From positions 9,084 through 73,083 of the forward strand of contig DATIZX010000079.1 of assembly GCA_035516795.1 (NCBI GenBank): 64,000 nucleotides of DNA, written 5' to 3'. This DNA comes from Verrucomicrobiia bacterium. GTDB lineage: Bacteria > Verrucomicrobiota > Verrucomicrobiia > Palsa-1439. The first letter of the stretch is position 1. Each line of letters begins with the position of its first letter. This document shows positions 6,001 through 12,000 of the stretch, piece after piece. A program made the position numbers.

Positions 6001-9000
6001 TTTTCTGTAGCAAGTAGCTGATCTCGATGTTCGCGTATCGATCGTGTGAATCGCGTACCTCCGAGCGTTTACCCAGGATCGCCTCGCACTCGTCGAGGGC
6101 GAGAACGCTGTTGGAGTTCTCCGCGGCAGCGAAAACGGCACTCAGGTTCTTTTCCGTTTCCCCGATGTATTTGCTAACGATCTGCGAGAGATCGATCTTG
6201 TACAACTCCAAGCCAAGAGAATTGGCAATGACCTCGGCGGCCATGGTCTTGCCCGTGCCGGACGGCCCCGCGAAGAGCGCATTCACACCCTTGCCCATCG
6301 ACAACTTGCAATCAAAGCCCCATTGTTCGAGGACGCGATCGCGATGTTCGACGCGCTGACAAATTTCGCGGAGTTGCGCCAGAGAATCTTCGGGCAAGAC
6401 GATGTCCGACCAGGTGTGTTTCGGATCGATTTTGCGCGCGAGCCCATTGAGCTTCTGGTTGGATTGCAACCGACAGGCTGCGTAAAGGTCTTGCGTGCGA
6501 ATCACCCCATGGTCGTCCGCGCGGGAACGGGCCAAGTCCATGGCTGTTTGCACCGCATTACGCACCTGACCGGGGTTGAGCCGGAATTTGCCAGCCACAG
6601 CGGTTACCTCTGGTTTCGCATCGGGAGCGACAGACCCATTTAGATAGCGATTCCATAGTTCTTGGCGTGTTGACGCTCCCGGTGTCGCAATGGCCATGCT
6701 GAGAAAGGGGCGTTCGGCATCCAGCCCGCGTGGCCGCCACGGTGTTTCACCCAGCAGAAACCACTCCGTGTCTGGATGTTCAGCAGCTACGGCGAACAAC
6801 GAACGCAAAGCATCATTCGCGGAAACGTCGCCGCTCACAAGAGCGTCAAAATTATCAAGGCAAAGCGCTGCGCGCTGCAATGTTGCCTCGCGACATAACA
6901 ATCGCAGCACTTCTTCGAAGGAAAGTGTGTGACCGATCATCTTCGAGGTATTTGCACACAGCAGAGACAAGCCGAGGTCGCGGCAAACGCATTCAGCAAA
7001 TGTCCGTTTACCGGCGCCGGCCGGCGCGTGCAAGTGCATCACCGGTTTTCCATACCCAGCCGTGGCTGCTAACGCGTTTGACCTGACAAAATCGCTCGCC
7101 GCTTGTTTTGAGTGATCATCGAGAATCAAATCGTCCCAGCCCATTTGTGGAGCGGTCACATGCGCCAGGGACGCCAAGCGCAAGTCGATTTGATCTGACC
7201 CGAGGATGAATGCAGCCACGCGGTCATCCAGTTTCAGAAACTTGGACAGTAACGGGGATGGACTGTCCAGCGATGGCTCAGAGATCTCTATGAGATGGTG
7301 TTTCAACAGCGGAGCGCCGGCGGCAAACGATGACCTAGCTTCTACCTTTTCCTGAGGCGTCACGCAGAAAAGTTTCAATGCCAGATCAATCCCCGGCCTT
7401 TTCCGAGTAACATCGTCTTGCAGGAACGCATACACTTTGTCGTACTTGCGATCGATTTCGGGCGCTAAGCAGAGCAGCAAACATTGCTGTTCGAACCAGT
7501 TGAGGCCGAAAGCTGCGGCTACATCCGGCAACGCCATATATGACCCGTTCCTAAGGCTCGCCACTTGCCTCGCGCGAAGCTCCGCGGTCGAGTTTTTGAT
7601 GGTTTGGATCAGTATTTTCAACTCCGAACAGTTGGATTCCAGGCGATCACAGGCCGCCGGTGCCGTCAGGCTTTCGATCTCCTCTTCGGTCAGCACAAGT
7701 CCCTTCAAATGGTCCAATGGATGAGACGGCTGTTGACGGAAATCGAGAAAAGCCAACCGCAACCGCAAGTCCAGCGATCTCAGTTCAGCCATAATGTGGT
7801 CCAAGCTCGTCACGAATGGAACGGGGACGTCCTCGGCGATCATGGTTTTCCCCGTGACAGAGTCGATCTCAGTCGGTGCGATGTTCGAATTCAAATGGCG
7901 GAATATCCTTGGAGAAAGCCAGCGGCTGAATCTGAGCAGGCTCCGCACGCAACGGCAGAGCCTCCGTTACCCAACACTGACGAACTGCGCCCTACACTTC
8001 CTGCAAAACTAAATGCTTCCGATCGATCAATACGCGAGCCCGTTGGATCGTATCCAACAAAATGGCCACACGCCTGCCATCGTCCCACTCCTGTTCAACC
8101 CGAGCGATCGTCCCTTCCAAGGGGCCATGATCGACGCAAACCAAGTCTCCCGGGCGCAATGGGGTTGGCGCTAGTCTAGCGTAACCATCTGCAGTCACGA
8201 GCGCGCGAACTGATTGAATAATCTCTTCCGCCACCGGTGTCGGCGTGCCATGTGTGCCAACCACCCGTAGGACTCCGGGCGCGTAACGTACGCCATCCAG
8301 CTGGTTGGCGAGACAGAATCGCGCGAAAAAATAGCCCGTAAATAGCGGGCGAATCCTGCGTTGGGCTATATTGGCTCGTGGCCGCGTTTCCTTAATCTCA
8401 GGGAAGAAGACTTCCATACCCTGTGAACCTAGGCGCGAGGAAGCCATCCGTTCACGACCCGGCTTGGCCTGCACCGCGAACCAATGAGTTTCGAAACAGT
8501 AATTTAACATTCAAGCACGTGTCCGATACTATTTCCAGCTTGGCCGCCCCACTCCGCTCGGCAGTAGTAGGTCTTGCCATCTGTTCCTTGGACCGGTCGG
8601 AGTTTGTTTCTCAGAACCAACGAATCCACCGCCGTCTGTACCTCGGAAATCGACTGCTGCAAACGCTGTTCTAGGAACCACCACGCAATGATTCCATCCA
8701 AAGTATCCTTTGCACCAGGATTGGCATCAAGATGCCCGAGAATGGCTTCCTCAAGACTTGTATCAATGTTGGATTCCATAGTTGGCTCGCCTACAAGGCG
8801 CATTAGCAACCAGTGTGCCGACCGAAATTGCTGCGGTTTTTGTGGCCGCGGTCGTGCAAGGTGGATGAATTTGTCCTGCCACCACGATGCTCAGCCTGTG
8901 GAGACCCGTTCGTTTACAGGAGATTTGCCAAGGATGTTTTTGTCGCAACTTGCGCGGGCGATTATCCTAGATGATTCACGAGAAGGCGGCGGACGGCACC

Positions 9001-12000
9001 GTGATATCGTGTTTCTTCATCAGCTGCCAGAAAGCGCGTCGGTTCTTCTTTGCCGCAGTTGCGGCCCGGGTGATGTTGCCATCGTAGGCCAACAATAATT
9101 CCCGAATATACTTATACTCAAAATCTGCAATGACTTTCGCTTTCAAACTTTTGAATGAAGTGTCTGGCGTCGCCGCGAGTGTTGAGGGCAGCAGAATGTC
9201 TTCGCACCCAATCGTCGGATGGTCGGACAGGATCAGAGCGCGTTCGATGGTGTTCTCCAATTCTCGCACGTTTCCCGGCCAGTCATAGGACATGAGCTTT
9301 TGCATGGCGAGCCTTGACAAAGCCGGCAAAGGTTTCCGTAACTCCGACGCATACTTGGTCAATAGATGCCTTACGAGCGGCGGGATGTCTTCTTTCCGGT
9401 GACGCAATGCTGGAAGTGATATTGGAATGACGTTCAGCCGGTAATACAGGTCGGCACGAAAACGGCCGGAACGTACGGCCTCCTCAAACTTGATGTTGGA
9501 AGCTGCCAAGACCCGAACGTCCGCCTTGCGGGTCTTGCAGGAACCGAGGGGACGAAATTCTTTCTCTTGGACGAAACGTAGCAGCTTCGCCTGCGATGGT
9601 AACGGCAGAGCATCAATTTCGTCCAAGAACATGGTGCCTCCATCGGATTCGGAAATCAACCCGGCAGCTGAGGAAGTTGCTCCCGTAAAGGCACCCTCCG
9701 CGTGGCCAAACAATTCATTTTCAACAAGTTCAGCCGGTAACGCGCCGCAGTTGACCGGAATGAATGGCTTGTCTGACCGTGGACTAAGATAGTGTATCGC
9801 ACGAGCGAACATCTCTTTGCCGGTGCCTGTTTCGCCACCAATCAGTATGCTCACATCACATTGCGCCAGTTTGGGTATTTTCCGGATTTCCTGGAGCAGC
9901 AGACTGCTTTCGCCTACAAACTGCCTGAGACCAAGCTGCTCCTTCAAATGGCCCCAAAGCGATTCGCTTTTGCCAACGTGCTGCAATAGTCGAAGCAGGC
10001 GCGGAATGACGTCGATTGCCCGAAGGGGAGTCAGAATGAAATCGGCCACTTCGGATTCGAACAGGTTTTGCAAGGGCTGTGCTTCGACAGCCTCAGCGAT
10101 CAGAACGATCGGGGCAGATCTCAACTTTTCGAAAATCTGAAGGATTGCATTTGGGGGCAGCCTGAGGGCTTCCGCCGGTAGACAAACCAACACTAGGTCT
10201 GCGGGATTGCCCGAGTTGCGCGGGAATTCAAACAAAGCGCTTGGCCGCCTAAGCCCATCTACATGCAAGACGATCTCAGCCATCTCGAAATCGCATAACG
10301 ACGACGCTTCCAGAATGCGCTTTAAAGAGCAAACCAATTCTCCACCACCCGGGAAACTCAGCACTATTACTCTCGCCCGTTTCATTCAAATCTCCTTTCG
10401 CAGGGAATCCGTGTCGTTCGCAACTCTGGTCAGGCACGCGTCAAACAGCAGTTGCTCCCACAAGATTCTTCGTCATCGAAATACCTGGGTAGCCCTTGTC
10501 CGTTTTACACGCGATACAGGGAAGCGAAAGATCCCAGGCCACTTCGAAGGAACCATTCCTTGCACCGGGGCTGTAAGAGTGCAAGAGCCGCGGACCAAAG
10601 CCTGATCGACCAGAACGGGTTGCAATTGGAACCGTCATCGAGCCCGTGCAGGTCACTGAATTGATTGCGAACTTTTCGCCAATGCTTTGCAGGCCTCCGC
10701 CGCCTTTGGGAAGGTTTATGGTGGGCGGCGCGAGCCGCTCATTGCCACTCCCTGACTTCTTCGCCTCTGCCCGTTGCCCGGAGTCTTGTTGCACAGGCAC
10801 GACCTTGCGTCTCCTTTAAGACTTAGGTACTAGTTCGTCTGCCCTACCTGCATGCTAACGCCTCATAGTGCGCTGGCCTGTCCTTCAATGGTTGAGCGGC
10901 CTTGGTCTCTTCACGAGACCGTCAATCATCTGATTGATTGCGATTAGAAACTTAGGTGCTCGCGCGGTGGGAGGAAGCGAACTTGGCCTTCTCGCCCATG
11001 GGGCCCTGGTGCCCCTTAAACGACCAGTGACTTGCCTGCCTAAATTCTCTCGCCTATTCGACCGTTTACGCTTCGACTAGCTCGGAATCAAGCAAAAAGG
11101 AATGTCGATGGGGCTTTTGCCACCGATCGGCTCAATTCCGCCGATTTGTGCCCATTTTCAGTGGAAATCTGTCAAACTCGCGGTTCGAGGTGCTAGGGAA
11201 ATTGTCAGGGAAAGTGCACTGACGGATTCTGATAGGGTCATGCCGGATAGTGATTGAATACTGGCGAATAGTGTTGCAGAAGAAGAGAAGCAACGAAATC
11301 CGAGGATTTTTGACAATCTTTTGTTTCGTGCGCAGGGTGAAAGAGTTGTGATGATCGTCACAGTTGTTTGACGACGTTCGATTCCGACACCCGCCTCCAA
11401 CCTCTATCCCAATCACTACAAGGCTTGGCAGTCAACGCTGTGTTCAATCTTGAATTGCCAAACAGCGTGCGTGATACCAAAAGTGGTACCATTTCGCTTT
11501 TTGACGGGTGCGGCACGTCGTCACCCTTCCAGCCGTACTTATAGCAACACCTGAACAATTAGCCACTCTCGTTGTCCTTGCCGAATGACACGACGGCCGG
11601 GACAAAAGCGTTGTAAAAGCCCTCTTCAATTCAGTACAACGGGAGCAGAGTGCTACCGCGGAGTTCAAAGAGCAAACAGGTCGGGGCGATCATGTGCGGA
11701 ACGGTATTCGCCATCAGCGCGGTTGCCGCGGCCTCAATTTCAGGACGCGTCGACATGGATCTGAATTCTGACTGGAAGTTTATCCGCCAAGACTTGCGTG
11801 CGGCCGAGGCAGTCGCGTTCGATGACTCGCAGTGGCAGGCGGTACAACTTCCCCATACGTGGAACAACATCGATGGCCAGGATGGGGGCGACGATTATTA
11901 CCGGGGCGTCGGCTGGTATCGACGTCATCTGAAAATTGATCCACAAGAAGCTGGCAAGAGTTTCTTCCTGAGGTTTGGCGCGGCGTCAACCGTGGCCGAT

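Follow-up and report, generated by a model that had tools for sequence, protein, structure and literature searches.

A predicted enhancer-dependent (sigma-54) transcription switch heading an extracellular contractile injection system operon in a Verrucomicrobiia bacterium

The window, by which is meant the whole 64,000-nucleotide stretch of contig DATIZX010000079.1 analysed here (positions 9,084 to 73,083), carries on its minus strand a cassette whose order is activator (bEBP) gene, enhancers, promoter, small conserved protein and genes of an extracellular contractile injection system (eCIS). The features are the following, in the direction of transcription:

8976–10385, minus strand: bEBP gene (469 aa) encoding a pseudo-receiver, an AAA+ sigma-54 activator domain and a predicted C-terminal helix-turn-helix
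9966–10385, minus strand: pseudo-receiver (aspartate-less receiver), residues 1–140, (beta-alpha)5 fold, with S10/F11, C68, A97 and T119 substitutions
9420–9917, minus strand: AAA+ sigma-54 interaction domain, residues 157–322, Walker A 184–191, GAFTGA 231–236, Walker B D255/E256
9012–9155, minus strand: C-terminal three-helix region, putatively DNA-binding, residues 411–458, Fis/HTH_8-like
8931–8946, minus strand: distal enhancer-like site GCGACAAAAACATCCT, degenerate, 10/16 to the consensus, centred 118 nt 5' of the first -24 base
8862–8877, minus strand: proximal candidate enhancer (UAS) AGGACAAATTCATCCA, 13/16 to the consensus AGGACAAATTTGTCCT, centred 49–50 nt 5' of the -24 element
8805–8820, minus strand: predicted sigma-54 promoter, -24 CGGCAC, 5-nt spacer, -12 TTGCT
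8504–8779, minus strand: first operon gene, 91-aa conserved protein, motif ILxYLxxHPxAxDTxxGIxxWW, weakly winged-helix-like
7992–8510, minus strand: NusG paralog (172 aa; Pfam NusG 3.6e-16), its start overlapping the small-ORF stop by 7 nt
5576–7948, minus strand: Afp15/Pvc15-like AAA+ ATPase, N-terminal winged-helix variant (Pfam WHD 1.2e-51, AAA 1.6e-31)
2881–5613, minus strand: eCIS_core (DUF4157) protein with C-terminal SsdA-like deaminase toxin domain (Pfam eCIS_core 6.7e-29, SsdA_C 1e-07)
1898–2803, minus strand: Pvc16/Afp16-like protein (Pfam Pvc16_N 5.4e-21)
1–1879, minus strand: sheath gene, truncated at the window boundary (from the gene calls of the parent contig)

In the parent contig (locus L001) the sheath gene (Phage_sheath_1, 663 aa) is followed by Phage_T4_gp19, the tube and further eCIS genes lying beyond the window, and the clustering of sheath, tube, Pvc16/Afp16, Afp15-type ATPase and DUF4157 genes identifies the machine as an Afp/PVC-like eCIS. 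The gene caller places the start of the ATPase gene at 7843. The gap between the NusG paralog and the ATPase gene amounts to 44–148 nt and may hold an internal promoter.

The predicted promoter, CGGCACACTGGTTGCT (8820–8805), has CGGCAC at 8820–8815 and TTGCT at 8809–8805, departs from TGGCAC-N5-TTGCW by a single mismatch (the first T) and displays the canonical GG-N10-GC spacing, its GG and GC doublets being exactly 10 nt apart as in the sigma-54 promoter pattern. A GGCAC-N5-TTGCT element had already been recognised near the activator gene by an earlier sequence-only reading, whose coordinates were off by 1–3 nt and whose distance from the activator (~150 bp) agrees with the 156 nt separating the beginning of the -24 element from the stop codon (8978–8976); the element does lie directly ahead of the first ORF, as also claimed, the ATG (8779) being 25 nt past the final T of TTGCT. 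From the usual -12 geometry transcription would be expected to start near 8794, and the element is probably sigma-54-dependent.

By pattern alone the element is not above chance, since TGGCAC-N5-TTGCW with at most one mismatch has four matches in the window where 2.73 are expected; the promoter is nevertheless judged to be real because the comparison with related loci supports it. A promoter site with at most two mismatches is found on the coding strand 5' of the homologous small ORF in 62 of 84 related loci (40 of 84 with at most one mismatch), compared with 2/84 for the other strand and 0/68 for coding controls; these counts, like the other locus counts given below, overstate the number of independent observations, since the metagenome loci are not phylogenetically independent. 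The sites cluster 24–90 nt ahead of the small ORF, are conserved in position and strand among loci from several phyla, and are also present on the correct strand 5' of the small-ORF homologue in the five loci (L003, L005, L007, L008 and L009) that were seeded independently from the activator. Furthermore, in the matrix scan against background that had been set beforehand as a test of the site, the latter did not fall below background but ranked first of ~128,000 positions on both strands with 19.4 bits (training median 17.6), the matrix being derived from 58 orthologous sites, with the window site left out, and being partly circular in that the training sites had been chosen by similarity to the consensus. 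No sigma-70-like promoter was found on the minus strand of the activator/small-ORF intergenic region.

Unbiased k-mer enrichment returned AGGACAAA in 41 of 81 upstream regions vs 1 of 72 coding controls, and in many loci the conserved enhancer-like palindrome AGGACAAATTTGTCCT is centred ~50 and ~118 nt 5' of the -24 element, a geometry that recurs in the window. With a matrix made from 44 sites of other loci, the proximal candidate ranks first in the whole window (~64,000 positions) with 19.1 bits, the next best position reaching 9.4, while the distal copy, a weak one (10/16), ranks tenth (5.7 bits) and sits where the distal site of the family falls. The two enhancer candidates originally proposed, at 8892–8917 and 8939–8947, were rejected, not being conserved elements; the copies that are conserved, at fixed distances from the promoter, lie at 8877–8862 and 8946–8931.

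The activator is a bEBP on account of its Sigma54_activat domain (3.5e-64; 216 bits vs a Pfam cut-off of 20.2), its Walker A (GETGTGKE, 184–191) and Walker B motifs and its GAFTGA loop, which proved intact as previously noted; AAA_lid_14 is also detected (4.1e-26), and the AAA+ motif residues vary hardly or not at all among 93 relatives. The protein is 48–60% identical to more than 100 full-length relatives, and its AF2 model (mean pLDDT 83.5) finds its best Foldseek matches in NtrC1 (1NY5), NtrX, FleQ-FleN, NtrC4 and LuxO over ~400–470 columns, with alignments covering both the receiver and the AAA+ domain, so that the receiver-AAA+-HTH layout is supported by profile and by fold. NCBIfam equivalog scores are all far under their cut-offs. 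At the C-terminus the model has helices at 411–433, 438–444 and 449–458 and a strongly conserved GNITRAA..KNRRAFWQL motif; PF02954 (HTH_8) is precomputed for several relatives, and the window protein misses E<=0.01. The predicted DNA-binding helices are highly conserved throughout the family, matching the conserved enhancer sequence.

Taken together, these elements most probably constitute an enhancer-dependent (sigma-54) transcription switch for the eCIS. According to the mechanism we propose, the sigma-54 RNA polymerase would bind the -24/-12 element at 8820–8805 and wait there as a closed complex; the bEBP, through its C-terminal helix-turn-helix, would bind AGGACAAATTTGTCCT at the strong copy (8877–8862) and at the weak one (8946–8931), form an AAA+ ring whose GAFTGA loop touches sigma-54, and use ATP for promoter opening. 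The transcript starting at ~8794 would then encode, within the presumed extent of the operon, the small protein, the NusG paralog, the Afp15-like ATPase, the DUF4157-deaminase toxin, Pvc16, the sheath and the tube onward.

What would control the activator is suggested by its N-terminus. Residues 4–137 display a (beta-alpha)5 topology in the AF2 model, i.e., a receiver fold, and align by profile to the receivers of NtrC1, FleQ, LuxO and NtrX. The loss of the phospho-acceptor Asp (replaced by Cys) and of the conserved Lys (TPL) had been surmised at the outset and is borne out by the profile alignment, in which Cys68 (codon TGT, 10184–10182) occupies the acceptor column of the NtrC1 receiver, Thr119 (10031–10029, within TPL) the Lys column and Ala97 the conserved Thr column; the replacement of the acidic pair by S10/F11 rests, outside this alignment, on where strand 1 ends in the model and on the family composition. 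Thus, all five phosphorylation residues are missing, which makes the domain a pseudo-receiver (aspartate-less receiver) as defined in PMC12632262. Indeed, none of 93 relatives has Asp or Glu in the acceptor column and none has Lys in the Lys column; the phosphorylation residues were evidently lost long ago. Cys68 gives no sign of having a special role, because Cys is not conserved at the acceptor position (C in 40 relatives, V in 32, I in 10, and others). The protein falls outside the canonical response-regulator bEBP class (NtrC, NtrC1, ZraR, GlrR), having neither a Response_reg match nor the Asp and Lys; a Pfam receiver match is absent in the window protein and sub-threshold in 5 of 7 relatives, the FleQ-type domain PF06490 has no match at E<=10 among 7 N-terminal domains, which places them outside the FleQ family, and the N-terminus has no Pfam match to any other pseudo-receiver model. 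No kinase gene is adjacent to the activator and none is consistently nearby across the loci examined.

Since the loss of the residues is family-wide, it may soundly be held, in keeping with what had been suggested from the window alone, that the activator would be controlled by something other than Asp phosphorylation; with the latter discounted, the input would be a ligand, a partner protein or the level at which the activator is produced. As in NtrC1, the conserved alpha4-beta5-alpha5 face of the pseudo-receiver would serve to restrain the ATPase or to fix its oligomeric state. A different, rather unlikely though possible, reading of the same domain is that the activator is constitutive and that the degenerate receiver merely provides passive dimerisation or a spacer, control residing in the amount of activator or in sigma-54 availability. 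The disappearance of the five catalytic residues throughout the family and the lack of a kinase gene consistently nearby would suit such a reading, as would the fact that many atypical regulators need no phosphorylation to dimerise and are under indirect control (PMC12632262); yet beta5-alpha5 is the best-conserved part of the domain, with D115, P120 and R129 invariant and F116, P128, R132 and L133 nearly so, which argues for a kept interface and not for a relic, and over 90 relatives have kept the domain at full length although their identity is only ~50%.

The proposed switch further includes the small ORF, on which the sequence-only reading was silent. This ORF is directly preceded by a bEBP in 45 of 58 loci; no other gene accompanies the activator as faithfully, and it should be counted as part of the module. 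The claim that a sigma-54 module made of a pseudo-receiver bEBP and a -24/-12 element heads the injection operon holds across loci, eCIS markers being found downstream of the cassette in 26 of 31 loci. The strict unit, on the other hand, is activator, promoter and small protein and not necessarily the whole eCIS operon, because 13 of the 58 loci have no activator directly 5' of the small ORF and 5 of the 31 cassettes are followed by unrelated genes. Relatives of the 91-aa protein number at least 1,463 and all lack Pfam domains; its AF2 model has a pLDDT of 80.

The two-layer control, at initiation and at elongation, that had been envisaged on account of the NusG paralog is plausible at the window locus but is not general, the paralog coming directly after the small ORF in just 11 of 58 loci. 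Its NCBIfam scores are all below cut-off (UpxY 69 bits vs 100, RfaH 66 vs 144.5, LoaP 42 vs 125), and neither a recruitment site, in an unsystematic look, nor an excess of terminators was seen.

The tight association of the small ORF with activator and promoter would also fit a cascade in which the main product of the sigma-54 promoter is the small protein (accompanied by the NusG paralog in the loci that have it there) and this protein is the real regulator, either a DNA-binding factor that activates separate promoters of the eCIS genes or a feedback partner of the pseudo-receiver activator. We regard this as unlikely. The five cassettes not followed by eCIS genes, the sub-threshold winged-helix matches (TrmB, MarR_2, GntR) in about half of the family and the label “predicted transcriptional regulator” given by some sources to relatives speak for it, and FleN acting on FleQ (PMC12632262) and Hcp acting on VasH (PMC10482370) provide precedents. 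However, in many loci sheath or ATPase genes lie 40–150 nt 3' of the small ORF on the same strand, the overlap of the small ORF with the next gene in the window fits a single transcript, matrix scans reveal no second conserved promoter or enhancer in the window operon, and DNA binding by the small protein is unproven, the search of its model against PDB folds having given no significant match.

Finally, that the -24/-12 match is fortuitous and the operon is transcribed from a different kind of promoter that escaped recognition is extremely improbable and is already contradicted by the comparative data, for, if the number of matches in the window (four vs 2.7 expected) is what chance would give, the strand, position and sequence of the element are kept over dozens of divergent loci while the flanking intergenic sequence is not, the window site ranks first, a dedicated activator is adjacent with enhancer sites at fixed distances, and the intergenic region has no sigma-70-like site.

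The switch proposed here can be set beside several known systems. AnfA1 is an RfaH-like regulator of the Serratia Afp. As with the known eCIS regulators (AnfA1; GerE/LuxR, BTAD), whose genes lie 5' of eCIS operons, the regulator gene of the window precedes its operon, and a NusG/RfaH-type paralog is present in this locus too. Geller et al. 2021 name GerE, BTAD and RfaH as eCIS regulators in a text that does not mention sigma factors, Sigma54_activat being listed only in a supplementary table, among the “shell” domains and with weak enrichment (49 genes, 4 phyla, odds ratio 1.59), and Chen et al. 2019 make no mention of sigma-54 or NtrC. The cassette, found again in numerous uncultured bacteria of soil and water, would provide a previously undiscussed regulator for mostly silent eCIS systems.

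With NtrC1, NtrC4 and DctD the activator shares the receiver-linker-AAA+ arrangement and the conserved alpha4-beta5-alpha5 region, its best match being 1NY5 (profile E 2.3e-101; Foldseek 9e-34); unlike these proteins, which are switched by Asp phosphorylation by a cognate kinase, the window family is devoid of Asp, Lys, Thr and acidic pair. With FleQ/FlrA it has in common the layout pseudo-receiver, AAA+ and, as predicted, HTH, and FleQ-FleN (8P53) is among its best structural and profile matches, but it has no Pfam FleQ-domain match, a different enhancer sequence and regulon, and no FleN-like gene nearby. For FleQ itself, control is exerted by c-di-GMP and a partner protein instead of a kinase (PMC12632262).

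Sigma-54/bEBP control of the T6SS is exerted by VasH in Vibrio and Aeromonas and by Sfa2 in the Pseudomonas H2-T6SS, and in V. cholerae the T6SS product Hcp feeds back on VasH (PMC10482370). There the activator gene lies in or next to a contractile-injection cluster, whose sigma-54 promoter(s) the activator turns on (PMC10482370), as is proposed for the window, the likeness between the proteins being that of their shared AAA+ core. Unlike the T6SS, the machine of the window is an Afp/PVC-type extracellular system whose first gene encodes a small conserved protein, the hosts belong to Verrucomicrobiota, Acidobacteriota, Thermodesulfobacteriota and similar phyla, and the receiver of the activator is aspartate-less. 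The proposed module resembles both the sigma-54 control of the T6SS and the pseudo-receiver activator FleQ.

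The regulatory module and the operon that it heads lie on the minus strand, the genes and the intergenic region being arranged as follows (window coordinates):

10800-10441 (minus strand), 119-aa ORF with an SpvB N-terminal fragment
10385-8976 (minus strand), sigma-54 activator, 469 aa
196 nt, intergenic region between the activator and the 91-aa ORF
8779-8504 (minus strand), small ORF, 91 aa
8510-7992 (minus strand), NusG paralog, overlapping the 91-aa ORF by 7 nt
next after the NusG paralog (minus strand), Afp15-like AAA+ ATPase
2881-5613 (minus strand), DUF4157/eCIS_core protein, 910 aa, with an SsdA-type deaminase domain at the C-terminus
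after the DUF4157/eCIS_core protein (minus strand), Pvc16_N protein

The sheath and tube genes continue on the same strand of the 109-kb parent metagenome contig (ENA ERZ27256514 k141_2016492) and, because they follow the Afp15-like ATPase, DUF4157 and Pvc16_N genes, the operon codes for an Afp/PVC-type extracellular contractile injection system (eCIS). An activator fragment identical to that of the window is annotated in a Verrucomicrobiae MAG. The 910-aa protein joins the eCIS_core N-terminal domain (DUF4157) to a toxin domain at the C-terminus, an SsdA-like single-strand DNA deaminase; its gene stands early in the operon, ahead of Pvc16 and of the sheath gene, and its product is a likely payload of this eCIS. 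The 119-aa ORF, which stops 55 nt ahead of the activator gene, matches the SpvB N-terminal domain model (1.9e-11) over no more than its first ~60 positions and looks like a piece of a Tc-toxin-type gene; it is found also in a second sample (L002), and the other loci do not show it ahead of the activator.

The sequence-only reading had placed a sigma-54 promoter upstream of the first ORF of the operon. The element, CGGCAC-N5-TTGCT, is indeed present at 8820-8805 (minus strand), starting 156 nt past the activator stop and leaving 25 nt between its end and the start codon (ATG, 8779), and no sigma-70-like promoter was found in the intergenic region on the strand of the operon. As a bare pattern the -24/-12 element is nothing special, TGGCAC-N5-TTGCW with at most one mismatch giving 4 matches in 64 kb vs 2.7 expected; the pattern being near chance, the claim was therefore tested against related loci. 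A clear -24/-12 element lies just upstream of the small ORF in five of six activator-linked loci, within intergenic sequence that is otherwise unalignable between them:

-24/-12 element of a related locus, TGGCACGGCGGATGCT
-24/-12 element of a related locus, TGGCATGGTGGTTGCT
-24/-12 element of a related locus, TGGCACATTGATTGCG
-24/-12 element of a related locus, TGGCAAGACATTTGCA
-24/-12 element of a related locus, TGGCACAATCAGTGCT

When the best consensus match was compared between the 250 nt that precede the small ORF, on both strands, and coding controls of equal length, the consensus with at most two mismatches was found on the coding strand in 62 of 84 loci, as opposed to 2/84 on the opposite strand and 0/68 in the controls; with at most one mismatch it is retained on the coding strand in 40/84 loci, and the sites are grouped 24-90 nt ahead of the small ORF. 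A position matrix trained on 58 distinct orthologous sites, none of them from the window, gives 19.4 bits to 8802-8823 (minus strand), the median of the training sites being 17.6 bits; since this is rank 1 of ~128,000 window positions, the proposed promoter does not fall below the background.

The second-best match to this matrix (16.8 bits) is a perfect sigma-54 consensus, TGGCACGAGCTTTGCA, at 32652-32673 (plus strand), shortly after an OmpR-type two-component pair (30350-32550); it stops 13 nt short of the start codon (ATG) of an ORF that is asparagine-synthase-like (32683-33849). It may represent a second sigma-54 promoter of this organism, and the very short leader suggests that the real start codon of the ORF may be located further in. 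The third-best match, TGGCGCGGCAGTTGCA (16.5 bits; 40772-40793, minus strand), lies inside a same-strand ORF (40021-41271).

Enhancers were sought by counting k-mers, with no prior assumption, in 81 upstream regions and 72 coding controls. AGGACAAA and ATTTGTCC occur in 41 and 38 of the former as against 1 and 0 of the latter, the full enhancer-like element being the 16-bp palindrome AGGACAAATTTGTCCT, whose centres fall, across loci, at about -118 (-114 to -126) and about -50 from the first -24 base. The corresponding sites of the window are:

8877-8862 (minus strand), proximal putative enhancer AGGACAAATTCATCCA, centre at -49.5, 13/16 to the consensus
8946-8931 (minus strand), distal putative enhancer GCGACAAAAACATCCT, degenerate, centre at -118, 10/16 to the consensus

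A matrix derived from 44 sites in the other loci, used to rank ~64,000 window positions, places the proximal site first (19.1 bits; next best anywhere 9.4) and the distal one tenth. Two different sequences had originally been put forward as enhancers, CCTGT-N16-ACAGG (at 8920-8895 once its position is corrected) and GCAAGTTGC (likewise corrected, at 8953-8945); neither is among the enriched k-mers of the 81 upstream regions, and both were discarded. In Thermodesulfobacteriota and Pyrinomonadaceae loci variant palindromes of the form GGGCA-N4-6-TGCCC (e.g., TGGGTAAATTTGCCCA and AGGGCATTGATGCCCA; L007 3750-3860 and L010 2400-2540) replace GGACA-N4-TGTCC; the GGGCA/TGCCC form is possibly an enhancer variant that co-varies and might be paired with recognition-helix changes in the activator.

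The central domain of the activator is a textbook sigma-54 interaction module whose Walker A, Walker B and GAFTGA motifs are intact, as first read, and the C-terminus consists of three predicted, very conserved helices, a strong conservation that fits that of the enhancer sequence. The full-length protein has more than 100 relatives, mostly of 460-500 aa and with 48-60% identity over the whole length, from Verrucomicrobiota, Acidobacteriota (Blastocatellia, Pyrinomonadaceae), Thermodesulfobacteriota and Planctomycetota. No Pfam receiver was found in the first 150 residues of the window activator, sub-threshold matches being the only ones in 5/7 relatives, and a word-index search with the N-terminal 161 residues alone, unlike that with the full-length query, returned nothing, the index missing this region since the domain is divergent. 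On the other hand, the family profile aligns the N-terminus to the receivers of NtrC1 (1NY5), FleQ, LuxO and NtrX, residues 4-137 adopt a (beta-alpha)5 topology in the AF2 model (mean pLDDT 83.5), and Foldseek aligned this model, across receiver and ATPase, to 1NY5, NtrX, FleQ-FleN, NtrC4 and LuxO, so that profile, model and structural search all show a receiver fold.

In the profile alignment Cys68 occupies the phospho-Asp position, Ala97 that of Thr and Thr119 that of Lys, while S10/F11, placed from the strand position and outside the alignment, are found instead of the acidic pair. The acceptor position in 93 relatives is occupied by C (40), V (32), I (10), T (3), A (3), S (2), L (2) and G (1), the Lys position by P (57), A (20), S (8) and others, and Asp, Glu or Lys is found at neither position in any of the 93. 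The absence of the acceptor Asp and of the conserved Lys, first proposed from the window, is thereby borne out; judged from these alignments, the loss is ancient and extends through the family, and the domain is an aspartate-less pseudo-receiver by the definitions of PMC12632262. A redox role of Cys68 as a general feature was rejected, more than half of the relatives having Val, Ile, Thr, Ala or others there; because Cys is not conserved at this position, no special meaning is attached to it. The best-kept part of the pseudo-receiver is beta5-alpha5, with D115, P120 and R129 invariant and F116, P128, R132 and L133 nearly so. In NtrC-family receivers this face serves dimerisation, and we infer that an interface is maintained here.

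The small protein encoded after the promoter belongs to a family of at least 1,463 members without a Pfam model, and it matched no Pfam or NCBIfam family. Since comparison with PDB sequences gave only marginal winged-helix matches (e.g., eS25, histone H1; E at least 0.005) and Foldseek with the AF2 model (pLDDT 80) no match below E = 0.4, "winged-helix-like" is a weak label.

The linkage of this protein to the activator was followed in six loci, three contexts of activator relatives and three from a genome scan, and in 6/6 the activator is followed by a small-ORF homologue. The genome scan, made with the activator alignment, picked generic bEBP (bacterial enhancer-binding protein) patterns (ENELFGH, WPGNVREL) and returned mostly unrelated activators, only L008-L010 being useful; a metagenome scan with the small-ORF alignment added 80 specific loci. 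Of the 58 loci with at least 1 kb of sequence before the small ORF, 45 have a same-strand activator that ends less than 1.2 kb ahead of it, and sheath, tube, Afp15 or Pvc16 homologues lie downstream in 26 of the 31 with 3 kb or more on that side. In the other five of these long loci (L102, L104, L118, L121, L130) eCIS markers are absent and the downstream genes are unrelated, those after the cassette coding for radical SAM, DUF6345, TonB-type barrel, ferritin-like and ABC substrate-binding proteins as well as for GerE/LuxR and a 1,163-aa protein without Pfam match; the cargo is thus an eCIS in most loci and something else in roughly a sixth of them. Because the non-eCIS loci keep the cassette, and several loci without an adjacent activator (e.g., L133, L148) still have enhancer and promoter, the invariant core is made up of the activator, the enhancers, the sigma-54 promoter and the small protein, and in most cases it heads an eCIS operon. 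The cassette occurs in Verrucomicrobiota, Acidobacteriota, Thermodesulfobacteriota and Planctomycetota, and in a Candidatus Vecturithrix genome (7.3-Mb contig JAXGYF010000001.1); GCA_036501665.1 and GCA_036260795.1 are further carriers.

In a few loci the activator is divergent from or downstream of the small ORF (L162 1736-2941, minus strand; L104 7307-8056, plus strand), and therefore the gene order of the cassette is common but not obligatory. L130 has two small-ORF copies (2396-2581 and 5017-5196). In a Blastocatellia locus (L005 10931-11629, GCA_035573895.1) nothing of the eCIS but short tblastn fragments of the Afp15-like ATPase comes after the activator and small ORF, with no sheath or tube gene found; it looks like a decayed eCIS locus in which the regulatory cassette was kept.

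Two-layer control, at initiation and through the NusG paralog, had also been proposed. The paralog does belong to the operon of the window, where it probably helps RNA polymerase through the long operon, and it scores below the cut-off of every defined subfamily; its gene directly follows the small ORF in 11 of the 58 loci with at least 700 nt downstream. The terminator-like hairpins that it might override number 14 in 1-8900 vs 10.1 +/- 3.2 expected, i.e., there is no excess, and an unsystematic look found no NusG recruitment site at the locus, so that a NusG second layer is reasonable but unsupported. One such hairpin, GCCCGCTATTTACGGGC then TATTTTTT (8334-8350, minus strand), lies inside the NusG-paralog coding sequence and may be due to chance, since the count of such sites in the region matches expectation.

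The core of the sequence-only reading, a sigma-54 control module with a pseudo-receiver bEBP, stands with the orthologue-conserved promoter, the intact AAA+ core and the lack of an acceptor Asp throughout the relatives, and the eCIS operon would most likely undergo standard enhancer-dependent activation by the cluster-encoded bEBP. As to the input, the missing phosphorylation residues exclude a kinase. The candidates are constitutive activity governed by how much activator is made, a ligand or protein that acts at the conserved face of the receiver, and feedback by the small protein, which, being tightly linked, is the obvious suspect; precedents for partner feedback on a bEBP are FleN-FleQ (PMC12632262) and Hcp-VasH (PMC10482370). 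In a bolder version, which we regard as rather unlikely, the ~95-aa protein would be the missing input/output partner of the phospho-dead activator, binding the beta5-alpha5 face of the pseudo-receiver or DNA, and the two proteins would form a self-contained sigma-54 feedback switch that replaces the kinase of an ancestral two-component system and is movable before different cargo operons.

Under laboratory conditions eCIS loci are mostly silent, and little is known about how they are controlled. A dedicated eCIS activator family is now defined with its promoter, predicted enhancer sequence and geometry, and the cassette offers both a genomic marker for finding such loci and a handle to switch on cryptic injection systems, e.g., by expressing a receiver-deleted activator. 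The eCIS regulators named in the genomic survey of Geller et al. 2021 are GerE (GerE/LuxR), BTAD and RfaH, "sigma" being absent from the text. In the supplementary table of that survey Sigma54_activat figures as a "shell" domain with weak enrichment (49 genes, 4 phyla, odds ratio 1.59); among the examples are Ppro_0378 of Pelobacter propionicus and Lcho_3032 of Leptothrix cholodnii, both with a small ORF after them (Ppro_0379 and Lcho_3033) and with eCIS genes as neighbours. The second genomic survey, Chen et al. 2019, mentions neither sigma-54 nor NtrC, and literature searches for sigma-54 control of eCIS, whose coverage is incomplete and no proof of absence, returned only T6SS papers or the reagent supplier "Sigma".

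Control by sigma-54 and a cluster-encoded bEBP is well known for T6SS, as with VasH and Sfa2 (PMC10482370), and pseudo-receiver bEBPs are already represented by FleQ, the activation of those with aspartate-less receivers, to which a large, cleanly defined family is here added, being an open question (PMC12632262). T6SS with VasH or Sfa2, and FleQ, are thus the closest, well-studied analogues of this eCIS module, and the mechanism of transcription activation is conventional; what is new is the delineation of a widespread eCIS-linked family of aspartate-less bEBPs, the predicted enhancer sequence and geometry of this family, and a small protein strictly linked to it.
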